Shown here: positions 9,515-38,824 of the stretch, piece by piece | Layout: the number at the start of each line of letters is the position of its first letter | How positions within the stretch are numbered: position 1 is the first letter of the stretch | Sequence record: MZ833439.1 | Length of the DNA stretch: 38,824 bases | Direction: 5' to 3' (one strand) | Source: Enterobacteria phage AH67C600_Q5 | Made by a program: the position numbers and the translations under genes | The notes under the pieces: generated by a model | Told to the model about the DNA's origin: nothing | Seen by the model: only the letters and a program-made list of their open reading frames with translations | Database searches by the model: none

Positions 9515-9969
9515 TGGCTCGTGTACAGTTTAAACCGCGTGAATCTACTGACGCAATCTTTGTCCACTGCTCGGCTACCAAACCAAGCCAGAATGTAGGT
9601 GTCCGTGAGATTCGTCAGTGGCATAAAGAGCAAGGTTGGCTTGATGTCGGGTATCATTTTATCATCAAGCGCGATGGCACTGTAGAGGAAGGTCGAGACG
9701 AGATGGCTGTAGGCTCTCACGTTAAGGGCCACAACCATAACTCCATCGGTGTCTGCCTTGTTGGTGGTATTGATGATAAAGGTAAGTTCGAAGCTAACTT
9801 TACGCCAGCCCAAATGCAATCCCTTCGCTCACTGCTTGTCACACTACTAGCTAAGTATGAAGGCGCTGTGCTGAAAGCCCATCACGATGTCGCACCTAAG
9901 GCTTGCCCTTCGTTCGACCTTAAGCGTTGGTGGGAGACGAACGAACTGGTCACTTCTGACCGTGGCTAA
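9514..9969 (+). CDS. 3.5: N-acetylmuramoyl-L-alanine amidase / T7 lysozyme (gene 3.5)
   Basis: 151-aa ORF MARVQFKPRESTDAIFVHCSATKPSQNVGVREIRQWHKEQGWLDVGYHF..., T7 gp3.5 homolog. Confidence 0.95.
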   Translation: MARVQFKPRESTDAIFVHCSATKPSQNVGVREIRQWHKEQGWLDVGYHFIIKRDGTVEEGRDEMAVGSHVKGHNHNSIGVCLVGGIDDKGKFEANFTPAQMQSLRSLLVTLLAKYEGAVLKAHHDVAPKACPSFDLKRWWETNELVTSDRG

Positions 9970-9993
9970 TTAATTGATTGTTCGCAACATTGA

Positions 9994-11712
<1,719 letters not shown>

Positions 11713-13170: not shown

Positions 13171-15129
13171 ATGATCGTTTCTGACATCGAAGCTAACGCC
13201 CTCTTAGAGAGCGTCACTAAGTTCCACTGCGGGGTTATCTACGACTACTCCACCGCTGAGTACGTAAGCTACCGTCCGAGTGACTTCGGTGCGTATCTGG
13301 ATGCGCTGGAAGCCGAGGTTGCACGAGGCGGTCTTATTGTGTTCCACAACGGTCACAAGTATGACGTTCCCGCATTGACCAAACTGGCTAAGTTGCAATT
13401 GAACCGAGAGTTCCACCTTCCTCGTGAGAACTGTATTGACACACTTGTGTTGTCACGCTTGATTCACTCCAACCTGAAAGACACCGATATGGGCCTGCTG
13501 CGTTCCGGTAAGTTGCCCGGTAAACGCTTTGGGTCTCACGCTTTGGAGGCGTGGGGCTATCGCTTAGGTGAGATGAAGGGTGAATACAAGGATGACTTTA
13601 AGCGTATGCTTGAAGAGCAAGGTGAAGAATACGTTGACGGAATGGAGTGGTGGAACTTCAACGAAGAGATGATGGCCTATAACGTTCAGGACGTTGTGGT
13701 CACTAAGGCTCTCCTTGAGAAGCTACTCTCTGATAAACATTACTTCCCTCCTGAGATTGACTTTACGGACGTAGGATACACTACGTTCTGGTCAGAATCC
13801 CTTGAGGCCGTTGATGTTGAACATCGCGCTGCGTGGCTACTCGCTAAGCAAGAGCGCAATGGATTCCCGTTTGACACGAAAGCAATCGAAGAGTTGTACG
13901 TAGAGTTAGCTGCCCGTCGCTCTGAGTTGCTACGTAAATTGACCGAAACGTTCGGCTCGTGGTATCAACCTAAGGGTGGTACAGAAATGTTCTGCCATCC
14001 GAGGACTGGTAAACCACTTCCCAAGTATCCTCGCATTAAGACACCTAAAGTTGGTGGTATCTTTAAGAAGCCTAAGAACAATGCACAGCGAGAAGGCAGA
14101 GAGCCTTGTGAACTGGATACCCGTGAATACGTTGCTGGTGCTCCGTATACTCCAGTAGAGCACGTAGTGTTTAACCCTTCGTCTCGTGACCACATCCAGA
14201 AGAAACTCCAAGAGGCTGGATGGGTCCCAACCAAGTACACCGATAAGGGTGCTCCTGTGGTGGACGATGAGGTACTCGAAGGAGTACGTGTAGACGACCC
14301 TGAGAAGCAAGCTGCTATCGACCTCATTAAAGAGTACCTGATGATTCAGAAGAGAATCGGTCAGTCTGCTGAGGGAGACAAGGCGTGGCTTCGTTACGTT
14401 GCCGAGGACGGTAAGATTCATGGTTCTGTTAACCCTAATGGAGCAGTTACGGGTCGTGCTACCCATGCGTTCCCCAACCTTGCGCAAATTCCGGGTGTAC
14501 GTTCTCCTTATGGTGAGCAGTGCCGCGCTGCTTTTGGCGCTGAACATCACTTAGATGGACTTACAGGTAAGCCTTGGGTTCAGGCTGGTATAGACGCCTC
14601 CGGTCTGGAGTTACGTTGCTTGGCCCACTTCATGGCTCGCTTTGATAACGGTGAGTATGCTCACGAGATTCTTAATGGTGACATTCACACTAAGAATCAG
14701 ATAGCTGCCGAATTGCCTACCCGTGATAACGCCAAGACGTTCATCTATGGGTTCCTTTATGGTGCTGGTGATGAGAAGATTGGGCAGATTGTTGGTGCTG
14801 GTAAAGAGCGCGGTAAGGAACTCAAGAAGAAATTCCTTGAGAACACCCCTGCGATTGCGGCACTCCGAGAGTCTATCCAACAGACACTCGTTGAGTCATC
14901 TCAGTGGGTAGCTGGTGAACAGCAAGTCAAGTGGAAACGCCGCTGGATTAAAGGACTTGATGGGCGCAAAGTCCATGTCCGTAGTCCTCATGCTGCCCTG
15001 AACACCTTGCTGCAATCTGCTGGTGCTCTTATCTGCAAACTGTGGATTATCAAGACCGAAGAGATGCTCTTAGAGAAAGGCTTGAAGCATGGCTGGGATG
15101 GGGACTTTGCGTACATGGCATGGGTGCAT
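13171..15129 (+). CDS. 5: DNA polymerase (gene 5) exon 1, codons 1-653
   Basis: Family A polymerase near-identical to T7 gp5 up to ...[11 protein letters not shown], then leaves the T7 reading frame; the uninterrupted ORF stops 8 codons later at 15153. Confidence 0.95.
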
Positions 15130-15730
15130 AAACTATCTCATTGTGCACATTAAATCTGGTGAACTCGGTGAAACCCTTCTAGGGCAATACCGAGCCAAGC
15201 CATAGGGAGGATATATGAGAGGCAAGAAGTTAATCCTTGCGACCACAGAGAGTGGTTGTATCATCCCTACGTCACACAAACTTAATACTGATGGTTATTT
15301 CCGAAAGAAGACGAACGGTGTCCTAGAGATGTATCACAGGACAGTCTGGAAGGAACACTACGGAGATATACCAGAAGGGTATGAAGTAGACCACAAGTGT
15401 AGGAACAGGGCGTGCTGTAACGTAGAGCACCTCCAGTTATTAGAAGGTTCTGAGCATACAGTCAAGACAAACAGGGAACGATACGCTGACCGTAAAGATT
15501 CCGCGAAGGAATACTGGTTGGAGACTGGATGTACAGGAACACACTTAGGTGAGAAGTTTGGTGTAACGTTCTCTGCCGCTTGTAAGTGGATTAGAGAGTG
15601 GAAGGCGTAGAGACTATCCGAAAGGAGTAGGGCCGAGGGTGAGATTCCCTCGTTACCCGAAGCGCCAGACAGTCAACTCAAAGGCTGATGATATAGTCCG
15701 ACACTCCTAGCAATAGGAGAATACAGAAAG
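15130..15730 (+). mobile_element. Group I self-splicing intron interrupting gene 5, carrying an HNH ORF
   Basis: 601-bp interruption between codons His653 and Asp654; exon 1 ends in U (15129); candidate internal guide gtgcac at 15143-15148 can pair with exon end gugcau including a U-G wobble at the splice site; intron ends in G (15730); exons join in frame to a 704-aa product. Confidence 0.85.
15215..15610 (+). CDS. Intron-encoded HNH homing endonuclease
   Basis: 131-aa ORF with RBS gggagg upstream; motifs EVDHKCRNRACCNVEHL typical of HNH endonucleases; lies entirely inside the intron. Confidence 0.85.
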   Translation: MRGKKLILATTESGCIIPTSHKLNTDGYFRKKTNGVLEMYHRTVWKEHYGDIPEGYEVDHKCRNRACCNVEHLQLLEGSEHTVKTNRERYADRKDSAKEYWLETGCTGTHLGEKFGVTFSAACKWIREWKA

Positions 15731-17562: not shown

Positions 17563-17600
17563 TAAACTCAAGGTCCAGGGGCCTTTATGATTATTACTTT
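17563..17600 (+). promoter_or_regulatory. RNase III processing hairpin (R6.5-like); no promoter present
   Basis: aaactcaaggtccaggggcctttatgattattac stem-loop signature; no T7 promoter core in the loop or nearby. Confidence 0.65.
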
Positions 17601-18559: not shown

Positions 18560-18826
18560 ATGGGTAAGAAAATTAAGAAGGCCGTTAAGAAAGTCGTTAA
18601 GGAAGTGGCTCGTCCGATTAAACAGGTTGCTGGTGGCATTGCCGGTCTGGCTGGCGGGCAAGTATTGGAAGTTCCACAGGCTGCTGCACAGATTGTTGAC
18701 GCGCCTGAGAAAGAGGTTTCCACTGAGGACGAAGCACAGACCGAAAGCGGACGTAAGAAAGCTCGCGCTGGTGGTAAGAAGTCATTAAGTGTGGCTCGTA
18801 GCTCAGGTGGGGGTATAAATATATGA
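18560..18826 (+). CDS. 7.3: gp7.3 tail-associated protein
   Basis: 88-aa Lys/Ala-rich ORF MGKKIKKAVKKVVKEVARPIKQVAGGIAGLAGG... Confidence 0.85.
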   Translation: MGKKIKKAVKKVVKEVARPIKQVAGGIAGLAGGQVLEVPQAAAQIVDAPEKEVSTEDEAQTESGRKKARAGGKKSLSVARSSGGGINI

Positions 18827-19218
18827 CAGATTGTATCGAGTGGACTGGCTACCTCACAAAAGATGGGTACGGCGAAACTCGACTGAATGGTGTCAAGTTT
18901 AGGGTTCATCGTCTAGAATGGGTGAAACAAAGAGGCCCAATACCTGAAGGTCTAGTTGTTCGCCATAAGTGCGATAACCCTAAATGTTACAATATCGAAC
19001 ACCTTGAGCTAGGAACAACTCAGGATAACACTAGAGATAGGGTCTTGAGGAATAGAAGCGCAAAGGGAGTACGTAATGGTAATTCCAAATTAACACCCGA
19101 TGTCGTTCTGGCAATACGTGCAAGTAGTAAGACCCACAAGCTGATAGCCGAAGAGTTCGGTGTATCCAAATCAGTTGTGACACAGATACGAGCACGTAAG
19201 ACATGGAGGCATATCTAA
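18823..19218 (+). CDS. 7.7: HNH homing endonuclease (T7 gene 7.7 position)
   Basis: 131-aa ORF with HKCDNPKCYNIEHL motif and C-terminal HTH-like region. Confidence 0.85.
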   Translation: MTDCIEWTGYLTKDGYGETRLNGVKFRVHRLEWVKQRGPIPEGLVVRHKCDNPKCYNIEHLELGTTQDNTRDRVLRNRSAKGVRNGNSKLTPDVVLAIRASSKTHKLIAEEFGVSKSVVTQIRARKTWRHI

Positions 19219-20834
19219 TGGCTGAGAAACGAACAGGACTTGCGGAGGAGGGCGCAAAGTCTGTCTATGAGCGTTTAAAGAATGACCGTGCTCCCTACGA
19301 GACACGCGCTCAGAATTGCGCTCAGTATACAATCCCTTCATTGTTCCCTAAGGACTCCGATAACGCCTCAACGGACTATGTAACTCCGTGGCAAGCCGTA
19401 GGCGCTCGTGGTCTAAACAATCTAGCCTCCAAGTTGATGTTAGCGTTATTCCCTATGCAGACGTGGATGCGTCTCACTATATCGGAGTTCGAGGCTAAAC
19501 AGTTACTTGATGACCCTGACGCTCTCGCTAAGGTCGATGAGGGTCTCTCGATGGTAGAGCGTATCATCATGAACTACATTGAGTCTAACAGCTACCGAGT
19601 GACTCTCTTTGAGGCTCTAAAGCAGTTAGTCGTTGCTGGTAACGTACTGCTGTACCTACCGGAACCAGAAGGGTCGAACTACAATCCCATGAAGCTGTAC
19701 CGCTTGTCTTCTTATGTGGTCCAACGAGACGCATTCGGCAACGTTCTGCAAATGGTGACTCGCGACCAGATAGCTTTCGGGGCACTCCCTGAGGATGTCC
19801 GTAAGGCTGTAGAAGGTCAAGGTGGTGAGAAGAAACCTGATGAGACCATTGATGTGTACACTCACATTTATATGGACGAGGAATCAGGAGAGTATCTCCG
19901 CTACGAAGAGGTTGAAGGTATGGAGGTCCAAGGTTCAGATGGGTCGTACCCTAAAGAGGCTTGTCCATACATCCCGATTCGAATGGTTCGACTAGATGGT
20001 GAATCCTATGGTCGTTCGTACATTGAGGAATACTTAGGTGACTTACGGTCCCTTGAGAATCTCCAAGAGGCTATCGTTAAGATGTCCATGATTAGCTCTA
20101 AGGTTATCGGCTTAGTGAACCCTGCTGGTATTACCCAGCCACGCCGACTGACTAAAGCTCAGACTGGTGACTTCGTTACAGGTCGCCCAGAAGACATCTC
20201 GTTCCTCCAACTGGAGAAGCAAGCAGACTTTACTGTGGCTAAGGCCGTCAGTGACGCTATCGAGGCTCGCCTTTCGTTTGCCTTTATGTTGAACTCTGCT
20301 GTTCAGCGCACTGGTGAACGTGTGACCGCCGAAGAGATTCGGTATGTCGCTTCTGAACTTGAAGATACTTTAGGTGGTGTCTACTCAATCCTTTCTCAAG
20401 AATTACAATTGCCTCTGGTACGAGTGCTCTTGAAGCAACTACAAGCCACGCAACAGATTCCTGAGTTACCTAAGGAAGCAGTAGAGCCAACTATTAGTAC
20501 AGGTCTGGAAGCAATCGGTCGTGGTCAAGACCTTGATAAGCTGGAACGCTGTGTCTCTGCATGGGCTGCTCTGGCCCCTATGCGTGATGACCCAGACATT
20601 AACCTTGCGATGATTAAGTTACGCATTGCTAACGCTATCGGTATTGACACTTCTGGCATCCTTCTTACCGAAGAGCAGAAGCAACAGAAGATGGCGCAAC
20701 AGTCTGTGCAAATGGGTATGGATAATGGTGCTGCTGCGCTTGGTCAAGGTATGGCTGCTCAGGCTACAGCTTCACCTGAGGCTATGGCTGCTGCCGCTGA
20801 TTCCGTTGGTTTACAGCAGGGCATTCATCTTTGA
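19218..20834 (+). CDS. 8: Head-tail connector / portal protein (gene 8)
   Basis: MAEKRTGLAEEGAKSVYERLKNDRAPYETRAQNCAQYTIP..., near-identical to T7 gp8; ends ...QQGIHL*, 2 aa longer than T7 as recalled. Confidence 0.95.
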   Translation: MAEKRTGLAEEGAKSVYERLKNDRAPYETRAQNCAQYTIPSLFPKDSDNASTDYVTPWQAVGARGLNNLASKLMLALFPMQTWMRLTISEFEAKQLLDDPDALAKVDEGLSMVERIIMNYIESNSYRVTLFEALKQLVVAGNVLLYLPEPEGSNYNPMKLYRLSSYVVQRDAFGNVLQMVTRDQIAFGALPEDVRKAVEGQGGEKKPDETIDVYTHIYMDEESGEYLRYEEVEGMEVQGSDGSYPKEACPYIPIRMVRLDGESYGRSYIEEYLGDLRSLENLQEAIVKMSMISSKVIGLVNPAGITQPRRLTKAQTGDFVTGRPEDISFLQLEKQADFTVAKAVSDAIEARLSFAFMLNSAVQRTGERVTAEEIRYVASELEDTLGGVYSILSQELQLPLVRVLLKQLQATQQIPELPKEAVEPTISTGLEAIGRGQDLDKLERCVSAWAALAPMRDDPDINLAMIKLRIANAIGIDTSGILLTEEQKQQKMAQQSVQMGMDNGAAALGQGMAAQATASPEAMAAAADSVGLQQGIHL

Positions 20835-20901: not shown

Positions 20902-21816
20902 ATGGCTGAATCTAATGCAGACGTATATGCATCTTTTGGTGTGAACTCCGCTGTGATGTCTGGTGGTTCCGTTGAGGAACATGAGCAGAACATGCTGGCT
21001 CTTGATGTTGCTGCCCGTGATGGCGATGATGCAATCGAGTTAGCGTCCGACGAAGTGGAAACAGAACGCGACCTGTATGACAACTCTGACCCGTTCGGTC
21101 AAGAGGATGATGAGGGACGCATTCAGGTTCGTATTGGTGATGGCTCTGAGCCGACCGATGTGGATACTGGAGAAGAAGTCGCTGAGGGCACAGAGGAGTT
21201 TACCCCGCTGGGCGAGACTCCAGAAGAACTGGTAGCTGCCTCTGAGCAACTTGGTGAGCACGAAGAGGGCTTCCAAGAGATGATTAACATTGCTGCCGAG
21301 CGCGGTATGAGTGCTGAGACCATTGAGGCAATCCAGCGTGAGTACGAGGAGAACGAAGAGTTATCCGATGCGTCATACGCTAAGCTGGCTGAAATTGGCT
21401 ACACTAAGGCTTTCATCGACTCGTACATTCGCGGTCAAGAAGCTCTGGTGGAGCAGTACGTCAACAGTATCGTTGAGTACGCTGGTGGTCGTGAGCGTTT
21501 TGATGCGCTGTACAGTCACCTTGAGACTCACAACCCTGAGGCTGCACAATCGCTGGACAACGCGTTGACGAATCGCGACTTAGCGACCGTTAAGGCCATC
21601 ATCAACTTGGCTGGTGAGTCTCGTGCTAAGGCGTTCGGTCGTAAGCCAACTCGTAGTGTAACCAGTCGAGCTATTCCGGCTAAACCTCAAGCTACTAAGC
21701 GTGAAGGGTTTGCTGACCGTAGCGAGATGATTAAGGCTATGAGTGACCCTCGGTATCGCACTGATGCAAACTATCGCCGTCAAGTCGAACAGAAAGTTAT
21801 CGACTCGAACTTCTGA
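20902..21816 (+). CDS. 9: Capsid assembly scaffold protein (gene 9)
   Basis: 304-aa acidic ORF MAESNADVYASFGVNSAVMSGGSVEEHEQNMLALD..., T7 gp9 homolog. Confidence 0.95.
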   Translation: MAESNADVYASFGVNSAVMSGGSVEEHEQNMLALDVAARDGDDAIELASDEVETERDLYDNSDPFGQEDDEGRIQVRIGDGSEPTDVDTGEEVAEGTEEFTPLGETPEELVAASEQLGEHEEGFQEMINIAAERGMSAETIEAIQREYEENEELSDASYAKLAEIGYTKAFIDSYIRGQEALVEQYVNSIVEYAGGRERFDALYSHLETHNPEAAQSLDNALTNRDLATVKAIINLAGESRAKAFGRKPTRSVTSRAIPAKPQATKREGFADRSEMIKAMSDPRYRTDANYRRQVEQKVIDSNF

Positions 21817-21817
21817 T

Positions 21818-22168
21818 AGACTCTCAACTTGCCGGATTCATCCAATGAGAACATTACTGGCCTTGGGTCCGCATCGGTCATTGAGACTACTCAGGCTAAG
21901 ACTCGCTGGAACCTCTCGCGCTAATACCGATGGTCAGAAACATGGCTTCCCAGAAGGCGTTGGCGGTAACAACAAGGTGGCTAAAATCAACGTTATCGGC
22001 CTGTTCATGCACCGCTCTGCGGTTGGTACTGTGAAACTGCGTGACTTGGCTCTGGAGCGCGCTCGCCGTGCTAACTTCCAAGCTGACCAGATTATCGCTA
22101 AGTACGCAATGGGCCACGGTGGTCTGCGCCCAGAAGCTGCTGGTGCAGTGGTTTTCAAAGCGGGGTAA
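21818..22168 (+). pseudogene. 10: Remnant of the major capsid protein gene (gene 10): about 115 of about 345 codons, in two different frames
   Basis: In the frame from 21820, NENITGLGSASVIETTQAK resembles T7 gp10 NENIEGLGTATVIETTQNK and then hits a stop at 21919-21921; in the +1 frame, [87 protein letters not shown] matches the gp10 C-terminus. No N-terminal half, no start codon, no RBS, no promoter. Confidence 0.85.
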
Positions 22169-22284
22169 TGCATGAAGTGACCTCAACGGTCGCTGCTAGT
22201 ACCGAAGAGGTAAGCATTACTGCCGAAGAGAGTCTAACTCCAGCACAAAAAGCTGCACGTACACGCTTTAATGGGAGGAACTAT

Positions 22285-22875
22285 ATGCGCTCTTACGATA
22301 TGAACGTTGAGACTGCCGCTGAGTTATCCGCTGTTAACGACATTCTGGCATCTATCGGTGAACCTCCGGTATCGACGCTGGAAGGTGACGCTAACGCAGA
22401 TGTGGCGAACGCTCGGCGTATTCTCAACAAGATTAACCGACAGATTCAGTCTCGTGGCTGGACATTCAACATTGAGGAAGGCATAACGCTATTACCTGAT
22501 GTTTACTCCAACCTGATTGTATACAGTGACGACTATTTGTCCCTAATGGCTACTTCTGGTCAATCCATCTACGTCAACCGAGGTGGCTATGTGTATGACC
22601 GAACGAGTCAATCTGACCGCTTTGAATCTGGCATTACCGTTAACATTATTCGTCTTCGAGACTACGATGAGATGCCTGAGTGCTTCCGCTACTGGATTGT
22701 CACTAAGGCTTCCCGTCAGTTCAACAACCGATTCTTTGGGGCACCAGAAGTAGAAGGTGCACTCCAAGAAGAGGAAGATGAGGCTCGACGTCTCTGCATG
22801 GAGTACGAAGTGGACTACGGTGGGTACAATATGCTGGATGGCGATGCGTTCACTTCTGGTCTACTGACTCGCTAA
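22285..22875 (+). CDS. 11: Tail tubular protein A (gene 11)
   Basis: 196 aa from ATG 22285 ([35 protein letters not shown]...), near-identical to T7 gp11; upstream part of track ORF 22168..22875 is the gene 10B-extension remnant. Confidence 0.95.
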
Positions 22876-25280: not shown

Positions 25281-25329
25281 TTAAATATTCTCCCTGTGGT
25301 GGCCAATACGACTACGGGAGGGTTTTCTT

Positions 25330-28931: not shown

Positions 28932-31900
28932 ATGGATAAGTACGATAAGAACGTACCAAGTGATTATGATGGTCTGTTCCAAAAGGCGGCTGATGCCAAC
29001 GGGGTCTCTTATGACCTTTTACGTAAAGTCGCTTGGACGGAATCACGCTTTGTACCCACAGCAAAATCTAAGACTGGACCATTAGGTATGATGCAGTTCA
29101 CCAAGGCAACCGCTAAGGCCCTTGGTCTGCGAGTTACCGATGGTCCAGATGATGACCGACTGAACCCTGAGTTAGCTATCAACGCTGCTGCTAAGCACCT
29201 TGCAGGTCTGGTTGGTAAATTCGATGGTGATGAACTCAAAGCTGCTCTTGCATATAACCAAGGCGAGGGACGCTTGGGTAATCCTCAACTTGAGGCGTAC
29301 TCCAAGGGAGACTTCGCGTCCATCTCTGAGGAGGGGCGTAATTACATGCGTAGCCTTCTGGATGTTGCTAAGTCACCTATGGCTGGACAGTTGGAAACTT
29401 TTGGAGGTATCACCCCAAAGGGTAAAGGCATTCCGGCTGAGGTAGGATTGGCTGGAATTGGTCATAAGCAGAAGGTGACACAGGAACTACCTGAGTCCAC
29501 AAGTTTTGACGTTAAGGGTATCGAACAGGAGGCTCCGGCGAAACCATTCGCCAAGGACTTTTGGGAGACCCACGGAGAAACGCTTGACGAATACAACAGT
29601 CGTTCAACCTTCTTCGGATTCAAAAATGCTGCCGAAGCTGAACTCTCCAACTCAGTCGCTGGGATGGCTTTCCGTGCTGGTCGTCTCGATAATGGTTTTG
29701 ACGTGTTTAAAGACACCATTACGCCGACTCGCTGGAACTCTCACATCTGGACTCCAGAAGAGTTAGAGAAGATTAGAACAGAGGTTAAGAACCCTGCGTA
29801 CATCAACGTGGTAACTGGTGGTTCTCCTGAGAATCTTGATGACCTCATTAAGCTGGCTAACGAGAACTTTGAGAATGACTCCCGCGCTGCCGAAGCTGGC
29901 CTAGGTGCAAAACTGAGTGCTGGAGTTATTGGTGCTGGCGTGGACCCACTCAGTTATGTTCCTATGGTCGGTGTGACTGGTAAGGGCTTTAAGTTAGTCA
30001 ATAAGGCTCTTGTAGTCGGTGCAGAGAGTGCTGCGCTGAACGTTGCATCCGAAGGTCTACGTACATCCGTAGCTGGCGGTGACGCTCACTACTCAGAGGC
30101 TGCTTTAAGTGGCTTTTTGTTTGGTGCTGGTATGTCCGCAATCAGTGACGCTGTAGCTGCTGGACTGAAACGTAGTAAGCCAGAAGTTGAGTTCGATAAT
30201 GAGTTCATCGGTCCTATGATGCGAATGGAAGCCCGTGAGACAGCACGTAACGCCAACTCTGCGGACCTCTCTCGGATGAACACTGAGAACATGAAGTTTG
30301 AAGGTGAGCATAATGGTATTCCGTATGCGGACTTACCGACCGAGAAAGGTGCTGTGGTGTTACATGATGGCTCCGTTATAAGCGCAAGCAACCCAACCAA
30401 CCCTAAGACTCTAAAAGAGTTCTCTGAGGTTGACCCTGAGAAGGCTGCGCGAGGAATCAAACTTGCTGGGTTCACCGAGATAGGCTTGAAGACCTTGGGG
30501 TCTGATGATGCTGACATCCGTAGAGTGGCTATCGACTTAGTTCGCTCACCTACTGGTATGCAGTCTGGTGCCTCAGGTAAGTTCGGTGCAACAGCTTCTG
30601 ACATCCACGAGAGACTTCACGGTACTGACCAGCGTACTTACAATGACCTGTACAAAGCAATGTCTGACGCGATGAAAGACCCTGAGTTCTCTACTGGTGG
30701 TGCTAAGATGTCTCGCGAAGAGGCACGATACACTATCTATCGTAGAGCGGCATTGGCTATTGAGCGTCCAGAGTTGCAGAGCGCACTCACTCGGTCTGAG
30801 AGAACCGTTATGGACATCATTAAGCGTCACTTTGACACCAAGCGTGAACTTATGGAGAACCCAGCAATCTTCGGTAATACGAAGGCTGTTAGTATCTTCC
30901 CTGAGAGTCGCCACAAAGGGACTTACGTTCCTCATGTATACGACCGACACGCTAAGGCGGTGATGATTCAACGCTACGGTGCCGAAGGTTTACAGGAAGG
31001 GGTTGCTCGCTCATGGATGAACAGCTACGTCTCCAGACCTGAGGTCAAGGCACGAGTTGATGAGATGCTTAAGGAATTACATGGGGTGAAGGAAGTAACG
31101 CCAGAGATGGTAGAGAAGTACGCTATGGATAAGGCTTACGGTATCTCTCATTCCGACCAGTTCACCAACAGTTCCATAATCGAAGAGAACATTGAGGGCT
31201 TAGTAGGTATCGAGAACAACTCGTTCCTTGAGGCACGTAACTTGTTCGATTCGGACTTATCCATCACTATGCCAGACGGACAGCAATTCTCAGTGAACGA
31301 CCTAAGGGACTTCGATATGTTCCACATCATGCCAGCGTATGACCGCCGCGTCAATGGTGACATCGCCATCATGGGGTCAACTGGTAAAACCACTAAGGAA
31401 CTTAAGGACGAGATTTTGGCTCTCAAAGCTAAAGCTGAGGGAGACGGTAAGAAGACTGGCGAGGTTCATGCTCTTATGGATACCGTTAAGATTCTTACTG
31501 GACGTGCTCGACGCAATCAGGATACTGTGTGGGAAACCTCGATGCGAGCTATCAATGACCTAGGGTTCTTCGCTAAGAACGCCTATATGGGTGCTCAGAA
31601 CCTTACTGAGATTGCTGGGATGTTTGCCACAGGTAACGTGCGTGCTCTCGGTCACGGTATCCCAATTCTGCGAGATACACTCTACAAGTCTAAACCAGTT
31701 TCCGCTAAGGAACTCAAGGAACTCCATGCGTCTCTGTTCGGGAAGGAGGTGGACCAGTTGATTCGACCTAAACGTGCTGACATAGTACAGCGACTAAGGG
31801 AAGCGACTGATACCGGACCTGCTGTGGCGAACATCGTAGGGACCTTGAAGTATTCCACGCAGGAACTGGCTGCTCGCTCTCCGTGGACTAAGGTGCTGAA

Positions 31901-32906
31901 TGGAACCACTAACTACCTTCTGGATGCTGCGCGTCAAGGTATGCTTGGTGACGTTATTAGTGCCACCCTAACAGGTAAGACTACCCGCTGGGAGAAAGAG
32001 GGATTCCTTCGGGGTGCCTCCATAACTCCTGAGCAGATGGCTGGTATCAAGTCTCTAATCAAGGAACACATGGTCCGTGGTGAGGACGGGAAGTTTACCG
32101 TTAAGGACAAGCAAGCGTTCTCTATGGACCCGCGTGCTATGGACTTATGGCGACTGGCTGACAAGGTAGCTGATGAGGCGATGCTGCGTCCGCATAAGGT
32201 GTCCTTACAGGATTCCCATGCGTTCGGAGCATTAGGTAAGATGGTGATGCAGTTTAAGTCTTTCACCATTAAATCCCTTAACTCTAAGTTCATTCGAACC
32301 TTCTACGATGGATACAAGAACAACCGAGCGATTGACGCTGCGCTGACTAGTATCATCTCTATGGGTCTCGCTGGTGGTTACTACGCTATGGCTGCACACG
32401 TCAAAGCGTATGGGATGCCTAAGGAGCAACGTAAAGAATACTTGGAGCGAGCACTGGACCCAACCATGATTGCCCACGCTTCGTTGTCTCGTAGTTCTCA
32501 ATTAGGTGCTCCTTTGGCTATGGCTGACCTAGTTGGTGGTATCTTAGGGGTAGAGTCCTCCAAGATGGTTCGCTCCACGATTCTACCTAAGGACACCATG
32601 AAGGAACGTGACCCAAACAAACCGTACACCTCTAGAGAGGTAATGGGAGCTATGGGTTCGAACCTTCTGGAGCAGATGCCTTCGGCTGGCTTTGTGGCTA
32701 ACGTTGGGGCCTCCCTAATGAACGCTGCTGGTGTGGTTAACTCACCTAACAAAGCAACCGAGCAGGACTTCATGACTGGCTTAATGAACTCTACCAAAGA
32801 GTTAGTGCCTAACGACCCTCTTACTCAACAGCTTGTGGTTAAGATTTATGAGGCCAACGGTGTTAACTTGAAGGAGCGTCGGAATGAAAGAATCTTCTCC
32901 CTGTAG
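28932..32906 (+). CDS. 16: Internal virion protein D with N-terminal lytic transglycosylase domain (gene 16)
   Basis: 1324-aa ORF; N-terminal transglycosylase-like region (TESRFVPTAKSKTGPLGMMQF); T7 gp16 homolog with a 6-aa longer C-terminus (NERIFSL*). Confidence 0.95.
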   Translation: MDKYDKNVPSDYDGLFQKAADANGVSYDLLRKVAWTESRFVPTAKSKTGPLGMMQFTKATAKALGLRVTDGPDDDRLNPELAINAAAKHLAGLVGKFDGDELKAALAYNQGEGRLGNPQLEAYSKGDFASISEEGRNYMRSLLDVAKSPMAGQLETFGGITPKGKGIPAEVGLAGIGHKQKVTQELPESTSFDVKGIEQEAPAKPFAKDFWETHGETLDEYNSRSTFFGFKNAAEAELSNSVAGMAFRAGRLDNGFDVFKDTITPTRWNSHIWTPEELEKIRTEVKNPAYINVVTGGSPENLDDLIKLANENFENDSRAAEAGLGAKLSAGVIGAGVDPLSYVPMVGVTGKGFKLVNKALVVGAESAALNVASEGLRTSVAGGDAHYSEAALSGFLFGAGMSAISDAVAAGLKRSKPEVEFDNEFIGPMMRMEARETARNANSADLSRMNTENMKFEGEHNGIPYADLPTEKGAVVLHDGSVISASNPTNPKTLKEFSEVDPEKAARGIKLAGFTEIGLKTLGSDDADIRRVAIDLVRSPTGMQSGASGKFGATASDIHERLHGTDQRTYNDLYKAMSDAMKDPEFSTGGAKMSREEARYTIYRRAALAIERPELQSALTRSERTVMDIIKRHFDTKRELMENPAIFGNTKAVSIFPESRHKGTYVPHVYDRHAKAVMIQRYGAEGLQEGVARSWMNSYVSRPEVKARVDEMLKELHGVKEVTPEMVEKYAMDKAYGISHSDQFTNSSIIEENIEGLVGIENNSFLEARNLFDSDLSITMPDGQQFSVNDLRDFDMFHIMPAYDRRVNGDIAIMGSTGKTTKELKDEILALKAKAEGDGKKTGEVHALMDTVKILTGRARRNQDTVWETSMRAINDLGFFAKNAYMGAQNLTEIAGMFATGNVRALGHGIPILRDTLYKSKPVSAKELKELHASLFGKEVDQLIRPKRADIVQRLREATDTGPAVANIVGTLKYSTQELAARSPWTKVLNGTTNYLLDAARQGMLGDVISATLTGKTTRWEKEGFLRGASITPEQMAGIKSLIKEHMVRGEDGKFTVKDKQAFSMDPRAMDLWRLADKVADEAMLRPHKVSLQDSHAFGALGKMVMQFKSFTIKSLNSKFIRTFYDGYKNNRAIDAALTSIISMGLAGGYYAMAAHVKAYGMPKEQRKEYLERALDPTMIAHASLSRSSQLGAPLAMADLVGGILGVESSKMVRSTILPKDTMKERDPNKPYTSREVMGAMGSNLLEQMPSAGFVANVGASLMNAAGVVNSPNKATEQDFMTGLMNSTKELVPNDPLTQQLVVKIYEANGVNLKERRNERIFSL

Positions 32907-37495: not shown

Positions 37496-37939
37496 ATGAT
37501 AAGCAAGAAGAAGTATGTTATCGATAAGGAGACTGGTTGCTGGAACTTTAGGGGATGTAAGACGAAGACTGGTTATGGTCGCATTCGTGTGAACGGAGTC
37601 CATTGGATGGCCCACAGGTATTCCCTGAGTTGTCATCTAGGCAGACCGATAGCTGACGGAATGGTTGTGATGCACCTATGTGATAATCCTTCATGTGTTA
37701 ACCCTGAGCACCTTAAGGAAGGGACTCAGAAGGAGAACATAGAGGACTGCATCTCAAAAGGTCGTGCAACTAAGTCCACAGGTAAACGTGATGCAACTAA
37801 GAGAGACCCTAGCGAGGAACGTAAGGCTATAGTGATTCGAAGATACCATAAAGGCTGGACCGCAACGTCCATAGCGAGATACCATAAGCTCTCTGTGGCG
37901 TGGGTAAAGAGGGTCATTGAGGATTACCTAAGTGATTGA
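37496..37939 (+). CDS. HNH homing endonuclease between gene 19 and phiOR
   Basis: 147-aa ORF with RBS aaggagg; MHLCDNPSCVNPEHL motif and C-terminal HTH-like region; paralog of the 8665, 11759 and 18823 ORFs. Confidence 0.85.
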   Translation: MISKKKYVIDKETGCWNFRGCKTKTGYGRIRVNGVHWMAHRYSLSCHLGRPIADGMVVMHLCDNPSCVNPEHLKEGTQKENIEDCISKGRATKSTGKRDATKRDPSEERKAIVIRRYHKGWTATSIARYHKLSVAWVKRVIEDYLSD

Positions 37940-37990
37940 TATTTGAAATTAGTGATACAGGTCTAAGTATATGATTACAGACCATTATTC

Positions 37991-38013
37991 TAATTCGACT
38001 CACTATAGGGAGA
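37991..38013 (+). promoter_or_regulatory. T7-RNAP promoter phiOR-like (taattcgactcactatagggaga)
   Basis: Only remaining 23-mer with the full class III-type tatagggaga 3' half; carries T instead of A at -13. Confidence 0.8.
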
Positions 38014-38103
38014 AGCCTACCTAAAGATTACTATAAGACTTAAAGTTACCTATAAGGTAGGTTGTTATTATTGTTAATACAACCAACATAAAGGAGGAGA
38101 CTC

Positions 38104-38253
38104 ATGTTCCGCTTATTGTTGAACCTACTGCGGCATAGAGTCACCTATCGCTTTCTTGTGGTACTTTGTGCTGCCCTTGGGTACGCATCGCTTAACGGAG
38201 ACCTCAGTTCACTGGAGTCTACCGTTTGCTCTTTACTCACTTGTAGTGATTAA
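38104..38253 (+). CDS. 19.5: gp19.5 small membrane protein
   Basis: 49-codon ORF MFRLLLNLLRHRVTYRFLVVLCAALGYASLNGDLSSLESTVCSLLTCSD matching T7 gp19.5. Confidence 0.75.
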   Translation: MFRLLLNLLRHRVTYRFLVVLCAALGYASLNGDLSSLESTVCSLLTCSD

Positions 38254-38493
38254 GGTCTTACTGACCGACTGATGGCTCACCGAGGGATTCAGCGGTATGA
38301 TTGCATCACACCACTTCATCCCTATAGAGTCAAGTCCTAAGGTATACCCTATAAAGAGCCTCTAATGGTCTATCCTAAGGTCTATACCTAAAGATAGGCC
38401 ATCCTATCAGTGATGCCTAAAGAGTTGCTTAGAGAGGGCCTAAGGAGTCCCTAGAGGGTCCTTTAAAATATACCATAAAAATCTGAGTGACTA

Positions 38494-38657
38494 TCTCACA
38501 GTGTAAGCGCCCAAAGTTCCCCCCATAGGGGTACCCAAAGTCACTCCTTTGGAGTGCCGGACCTTGAGGTGGCCTTAAAGTGGGCCTTGAGGTGGACCGA
38601 AGGAGGGTCCTAGTGATACCGTGGGGAGTGTCTCCTTGTCCCTATCTGTTCAGCCTC
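38494..38657. repeat. Sequence corresponding to the direct terminal repeat of a T7-like linear genome (single collapsed copy); physical genome ends inferred here
   Basis: tctcacagtgta...ccctatctgtt resembles the T7 left-end terminal repeat, preceded by right-end-type sequence (ataccataaaaatctgagtgacta). Confidence 0.7.
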
Positions 38658-38753
38658 CTAAAGTCACCTCCTAAAGTCATTCTACCGTCTACAGCCTAAA
38701 GACTACACCTAAAGACCCATTCAGTCAATCCCTATCTTAAAGATAATCCTAAA

Positions 38754-38824
38754 GACCATACCTAAAGACCATACCTAAAGACCATACCTAAAGACCATAC
38801 CTAAAGACCATACCTAAAGACCAT
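38754..38824. repeat. Tandem array of the 13-bp unit (accatacctaaag), about 5.5 copies, truncated by the window end; continuous with the array at 1-77
   Basis: Direct reading; preceded at 38650-38750 by dispersed cctaaag motifs as in the T7 left end. Confidence 0.9.

Follow-up and report, generated by a model that had tools for sequence, protein, structure and literature searches.

The loss of the major capsid gene (gene 10) from the window, by which the whole 38,824-nt stretch of DNA analysed is meant, is very probably an artefact of vector-contamination trimming applied after assembly to the genome of an ordinary Teseptimavirus, and not the mark of a capsid-less virus. Wherever the assembled sequence significantly matched, by BLAST, T7 sequence borne by vectors (the phi10 promoter with the s10 leader, codons 1-260 of gene 10, and the Tphi fragment), the span would have been deleted once assembly was complete and its flanks joined. 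Most likely, coordinates flagged by a VecScreen/UniVec or FCS-adaptor screen were taken out before the sequence was submitted to GenBank or on its submission. It is almost certain that the real phage carries an intact gene 10 of ~345 codons, all class III promoters and Tphi; about 1 kb would have been removed in total, from a native genome of roughly 39.8 kb, a usual size in the genus. Deletion of DNA guided by a BLAST score against the T7 phi10 region has no counterpart in biology, and a phage lacking the capsid gene, the class III promoters and Tphi would not be obtainable as a plaque-forming isolate. The capsid loss does not belong to the phage itself and holds nothing new biologically.

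Three candidate explanations had been offered in a preliminary description of the window. The artefact class stands, in a form more specific than mis-assembly, whereas the biological candidates, a defective or helper-dependent genome and an engineered deletion, are contradicted by the additional loss of five promoters and Tphi, by the cutting of the gene 8 and gene 16 stop codons, and by cut sites that follow a BLAST-score threshold.

Remains of gene 10 between genes 9 and 11

The window holds almost the whole genome of a Teseptimavirus (T7-like phage), a mosaic ~93% identical to phages such as 13a, phiA1122 and T7, and the phage collection searched contains no copy of it. All large genes other than the capsid gene are intact, which rules out a generally poor, frameshift-ridden assembly, and the other essential genes are intact too. 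Intact relatives have in common the order gene 8, phi9, gene 9, phi10, gene 10A/10B, Tphi, gene 11, gene 12. On comparison with the intact gene 10 loci of T7, 13a, PGX1, pO111 and vB_YenP_WW2 (WW2), breakpoint mapping against gene 10 located three missing blocks, amounting to ~880 bp of the intact locus, with phi9 missing as well. The features of the interval and its neighbours are as follows:

20902-21816, + strand: gene 9 (scaffolding protein), intact, left neighbour; 304-aa ORF, ~93% nucleotide identity to intact relatives
21817-21824, + strand: gene 9-gene 10 intergenic stub TAGACTCT; intact relatives continue with GAAATTAATACGACTCACTATAGGGAGA, the phi10 promoter
21824-21825, unstranded: excision junction 1; lost are the phi10 promoter, leader, RBS and gene 10 codons 1 to ~146 (~520 bp)
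21825-21903, + strand: gene 10 middle piece, 79 nt, aa ~147-172; hypervariable stretch, 73% nucleotide identity to PGX1 (blastn)
21903-21904, unstranded: excision junction 2; lost are codons ~173-257, 254 bp
21904-22168, + strand: C-terminal quarter of gene 10A, aa ~258-345 and stop; 97% nucleotide identity to PGX1
22169-22266, + strand: first part of the gene 10B tail region, by alignment with intact relatives
22266-22267, unstranded: excision junction 3; lost are ~107 bp (GCTGCTAACAAAGCCCGAA...GGGGTTTTTTGC), comprising the end of the 10B tail and the Tphi terminator
22285-22875, + strand: gene 11 (tail tubular protein A), intact, right neighbour

The equivalent of 22169-22266 is annotated in 13a as 'similar to C-terminal tail of gp10B'. 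Between the scaffold gene, ending at 21816, and gene 11, starting at 22285, only the 468 bp first reported are present, and a tblastn search with the intact 345-aa gp10A of PGX1 returns just two pieces, in agreement with the description of two capsid fragments in different reading frames: aa 147-172 at 21826-21903 in frame 1 (69% aa identity) and aa 258-344 at 21905-22165 in frame 2 (98.9% aa identity). The change of frame between them follows from the 254-bp loss at junction 2, which is not a multiple of 3. The frame of the middle piece does end in a stop, as had been described, although its position is 21922-21924 and not 21919-21921.

With codons 1-146 absent, the reported lack of promoter, RBS, start codon and N-terminal half is borne out, and codons 173-257 are absent also. 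The same gp10A query, run against the whole window, gave nothing further better than E=3.9, in keeping with the earlier statement that no other capsid gene is present, and no second capsid gene was found by it in the whole of the related genome vB_Yep_15 (see below). A functional gp10A (HK97 fold) would be expected as a continuous ~345-codon ORF with its own start and RBS, preceded by phi10 and followed by Tphi; the window has no such ORF, and both phi10 and Tphi are absent. The earlier impression that the region was patched by a number of small deletions, and not cut out cleanly in one piece, is likewise correct, as alignment with two intact relatives and vB_Yep_15 shows three gaps, and this patched appearance of the capsid region is the key clue to the cause of the loss. 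Mis-assembly via repeats was rejected, since in intact relatives the sequences at the breakpoints have only 2-5 nt of ambiguous bases in common, too few for an assembler jump.

Promoter losses and two related phage records

T7-like phages have 17 T7-type promoters each, following the 13a annotation, and the window has four T7-promoter-like sites, none of them perfect. Imperfect promoter-like sites left in the window lie, for example, at 138, 5739, 6875, 6992, 7895, 11728 and 37991. Outside gene 10, five class III or phi10-like promoters have been cut, each cut spanning 26-32 nt with the flanks abutting seamlessly:

9977-9978, unstranded: phi3.8 junction; 32 nt lost (ACTCACTATAGGGAGACCGCAACGGTTTCCCT in WW2), relatives being 28-32 nt longer here
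17576-17577, unstranded: phi6.5 junction; 30 nt with the consensus promoter lost
20824-20825, unstranded: phi9 junction; 26 nt lost, including the gene 8 TAA stop
25303-25304, unstranded: phi13 junction; ~31 nt lost
32884-32885, unstranded: phi17 junction; ~26 nt lost, including the gene 16 TAA stop

The phi3.8 cut splits its promoter, the 5' half AATTAATTGA, which has no phi10 match, being kept and the phi10-matching ACTCACTATAGGGAGACCGCAACGGTTTCCCT removed, such that the cut falls exactly where the likeness to phi10 begins. Compared with 13a, the ORF of portal protein gp8 (19203-20834) is 7 codons longer (543 aa versus 536) and that of gp16 (28932-32906) 6 codons longer (1324 aa versus 1318); these C-terminal extensions, ending in QQGIHL and RRNERIFSL respectively before the stop, are artefactual, because the native TAA stops lay inside the excised phi9 and phi17.

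Comparable losses are found in two GenBank 'complete genomes' deposited by one submitter under consecutive accessions, vB_Yep_15 (PV596791.1) and vB_Yep_9 (PV596790.1), both wastewater isolates on Yersinia enterocolitica; in the capsid region their identity to the window is ~92% and ~86%, respectively. Both are without the capsid gene, Tphi and phi6.5, and their short capsid remnants carry the labels 'minor capsid protein' and 'virion structural protein'; vB_Yep_15 is also without phi9, phi13 and phi17, and its phi6.5, phi9, phi13 and phi17 cuts are the same as those of the window. Among 50,697 phage records, only vB_Yep_9 and vB_Yep_15 crossed the phi6.5 junction, a weak result in that the query reached 4 nt past the junction. 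A literature search on the names of the two phages found nothing relevant.

The capsid loci of the two records are cut differently, with four cuts in vB_Yep_15 and, in vB_Yep_9, one long cut that leads from the gene 9 stop straight to the C-terminal quarter. Relative to the window, vB_Yep_15 has an extra 110 bp after gene 9, a different allele right after junction 2, and a 3-nt offset. The extra 110 bp are 99% identical to intact WW2, in which the gene 9 stop is followed by the phi10 promoter, a 110-nt non-T7 leader, and the RBS with gene 10. When vB_Yep_15 is set against WW2, the ~29-nt promoter is lost and the non-T7 leader kept; the RBS and codons 1-146 are lost, the divergent middle is kept, and the stretch to codon ~257 and Tphi are lost. 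T7-like sequence is gone and non-T7 sequence is kept. A single inherited deletion common to the window and vB_Yep_15 is ruled out by the 110-nt leader, the allele after junction 2 and the 3-nt offset, and the pattern of vB_Yep_9 is different again; the recurrence of a boundary at capsid codon ~258 in unlike alleles speaks for something systematic and against one inherited deletion.

A capsid-less architecture common to three genomes that differ by ~8% could be taken as the sign of a real defective or helper-dependent lineage, in which the capsid gene was lost and propagation is ensured by a co-infecting T7-like helper. The junction patterns of the three genomes are, however, allele-dependent and predicted by similarity to T7, not by common descent; the losses of phi3.8, phi6.5, phi9, phi13, phi17 and Tphi would abolish late transcription without any selective logic; genes 8 and 16 have lost their stop codons too; and vB_Yep_15 has lost a 29-nt promoter yet kept the adjacent 110-nt non-T7 leader. 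In a defective phage, loss would be limited to functions that can be supplied in trans, with cis signals preserved, and shared junctions would stem from one deletion event; the losses seen here are not so limited, and the junction sets differ among the three genomes. Such a lineage is considered extremely improbable. The capsid junction had 0 matches in IMG/VR, a result that speaks neither for nor against it.

T7 DNA in cloning vectors and simulated vector screening

The trimming artefact is indicated by the match between the missing spans and the T7 DNA carried by cloning vectors. Plasmids derived from pET (PLSDB) match T7 in two segments, one starting from CGAAATTAATACGACTC (the phi10 promoter) and the other being a 128-bp Tphi fragment. 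Left of junction 1, the retained sequence TGATAGACTCT ends at 21824 in the alignment, and the cut begins at GAAATTAATACGACTC, the same point at which the pET-derived plasmids start to match T7; the gap at junction 3 corresponds to the T7 terminator fragment of pET vectors and starts where that fragment starts. Gene 10 fusion vectors contain gene 10 up to aa 260 (PMC2095791). The vector types concerned for codons 1-260 are of the pSCREEN/pET-3x type, and codons 259-260 of T7 gene 10 read GGTACC, a KpnI site. In the window, capsid sequence resumes at codon ~258, and the retained C-terminal quarter lies outside the content of the gene 10 fusion vectors. As the lost segments end where vector T7 DNA ends, the outer limits of the loss are the limits of T7 DNA in common vectors, and every missing span (phi10 with its leader, codons 1-260, Tphi and the promoter cuts) corresponds to vector-carried sequence. 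The 79-nt island, the most T7-divergent stretch, would have been kept as too unlike T7 to match a vector.

T7 gene 10 deletion derivatives grown on complementing hosts exist, and the same segments might in principle be affected by recombination with a plasmid of the pET type, as would be relevant to an engineered or laboratory-evolved gene 10 deletion phage maintained on a host expressing gp10 from a plasmid. Against this origin, the window is not T7 but a mosaic ~93% identical to it, the two sister records come from wastewater and were isolated on Yersinia enterocolitica, and engineering would account neither for five promoters cut in keeping with a BLAST-score threshold nor for capsid islands left out of frame; the chance of it is rated as minimal. 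T7 gene 10 deletion and amber mutants resemble the window in being phage genomes without a functional capsid gene, but theirs are defined single lesions with transcription signals intact, whereas the losses in the window are multiple, similarity-defined and genome-wide.

VecScreen was simulated by searching intact relatives with blastn under its settings (match reward 1, mismatch penalty -5, gap costs 3/3); in place of UniVec the target was a mini-library with one T7 segment running from the phi10 promoter up to and including codon 260 and a second consisting of the Tphi fragment. In pO111, three spans were flagged around a 78-nt unflagged island, which is the pattern of the window with its 79-nt island; in WW2, four flagged spans left a 108-nt non-T7 leader and an 84-nt island, the pattern of vB_Yep_15; and in PGX1, which has a T7-like middle region, one continuous span was flagged from the promoter to codon 257, the pattern of vB_Yep_9. 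The different remnants in the window, vB_Yep_15 and vB_Yep_9 are each predicted by the sequence's own vector similarity. The flagged span of PGX1 starts at the G of GAAATT and ends at position 2500 of the PGX1 sequence, and the C-terminal fragment of the window aligns from 2501; together with the split phi3.8 and the severed stops of genes 8 and 16, these positions place the cuts at local-alignment ends and not at biological boundaries. The phi13 and phi17 junctions and the right edge of the middle island lie 1-3 nt off the predictions, offsets that are expected where predictions come from the alleles of relatives and a minimal vector library, and that are assumed to reflect small allele differences in the native sequence or vector matches outside the mini-library.

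The same simulation separates removed from retained elements by score. In intact 13a, scores of at least 23 are reached by the phi3.8 region (score 26), phi6.5, phi9, phi10 to codon 260, Tphi, phi13 and phi17, and all of these flagged elements are missing from the window. The other eleven 13a promoters score 16-22 or lower and go unflagged; ten of the eleven scoring 22 or less were traced one-to-one and are kept in the window, the phi1.1A/phi1.1B pair being without one-to-one assignment. Elements scoring 23 or more have been removed, and those scoring 22 or less kept. As deposited, the window, vB_Yep_15 and vB_Yep_9 have no match above the simulation threshold, the best residual score being 20 in the window and 18 in vB_Yep_15.

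The behaviour of VecScreen/UniVec (NCBI) parallels the losses in the window: the same spans are flagged, the threshold score for an internal match is 23, unflagged islands longer than 50 nt are kept, and once trimming is done no above-threshold match is left. Unlike true contamination caught by this screen, the matches here are false positives, the vectors having borrowed their sequence from T7 and the phage being its natural source. Other similarity-based cleaning, in which reads matching vectors or contaminants are filtered or k-mer-trimmed before assembly, or zero-coverage consensus positions are dropped, would target the same T7- and vector-like sequences, and the consecutive accessions and single submitter of vB_Yep_9 and vB_Yep_15 suggest a shared pipeline. 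Read-level filtering, however, drops whole reads or breaks contigs, from which seamless joins are not expected, and cuts of 23-32 nt at local-alignment ends, with scores of 23 or more removed and 22 or less retained, fit the internal-match rule of VecScreen better than filters based on 27-31-mers; this kind of cleaning is regarded as unlikely. The score threshold of 23 and the seamless joins favour a VecScreen-type route, which, on the evidence of the mini-library of T7 segments, appears the most likely one. That the window and the two Yersinia records are instead faithful sequences of natural T7-like helper parasites, devoid of capsid gene and class III promoters and coinciding with vector content by accident, is given next to no credence.

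Affected records and other features of the window

The trimming artefact bears on database quality, in that the window, PV596790.1 and PV596791.1 are each ~1 kb short, wanting the major capsid gene, late promoters and the main terminator. At least the window and two public records are affected, T7-derived vector parts having been treated as contamination in genuine T7-like phages; no publication was found on this artefact or on VecScreen/UniVec problems in T7-like phages. Trimmed records of this kind would mislead capsid phylogenies and taxonomy, studies of promoter-RNA polymerase co-variation, completeness estimates, and searches for 'capsid-less' satellites, and the artefact is a useful warning to database users and curators. 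A possible screen for other affected records would be to look for Teseptimavirus genomes that combine the lack of a perfect TAATACGACTCACTATAGGGAGA site with a short gap between gene 9 and gene 11.

Several further features of the window were observed. Gene 5 (DNA polymerase) is apparently split into a 660-aa ORF (13171-15153) followed by a 131-aa ORF (15215-15610), a split that corresponds to an intron with an HNH endonuclease; the 131-aa endonuclease ORF is nearly identical to its counterpart in 13a, where the annotation joins gene 5 from 2 pieces around an 'endonuclease' CDS. This split is real, already known, and lies outside the artefact. Genes 3.5 and 4 have no gene 3.8 between them (window 9969-10009), a gene that encodes an HNH endonuclease in T7 and 13a; it is likewise missing from WW2, HZ2R8, EG1 and pO111, which makes its absence natural gene-content variation and not an excision. 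A further 131-aa ORF with an HNH-like motif (HRLEWV…HKCDNPKCYNIEHL) at 18823-19218, in the position of gene 7.7 and overlapping the start of gene 8, probably encodes a free-standing homing endonuclease of a type common in Teseptimavirus.

Where the ends of the window were considered (1-225 and 37888-38824), position 17 aligns to ~304 of 13a, from which it follows that the window does not open with the left terminal repeat and the initial ~290 nt, and the right end (37888-38824) seems to extend beyond the 13a-equivalent end; the sequence record may be circularly permuted or differently trimmed.
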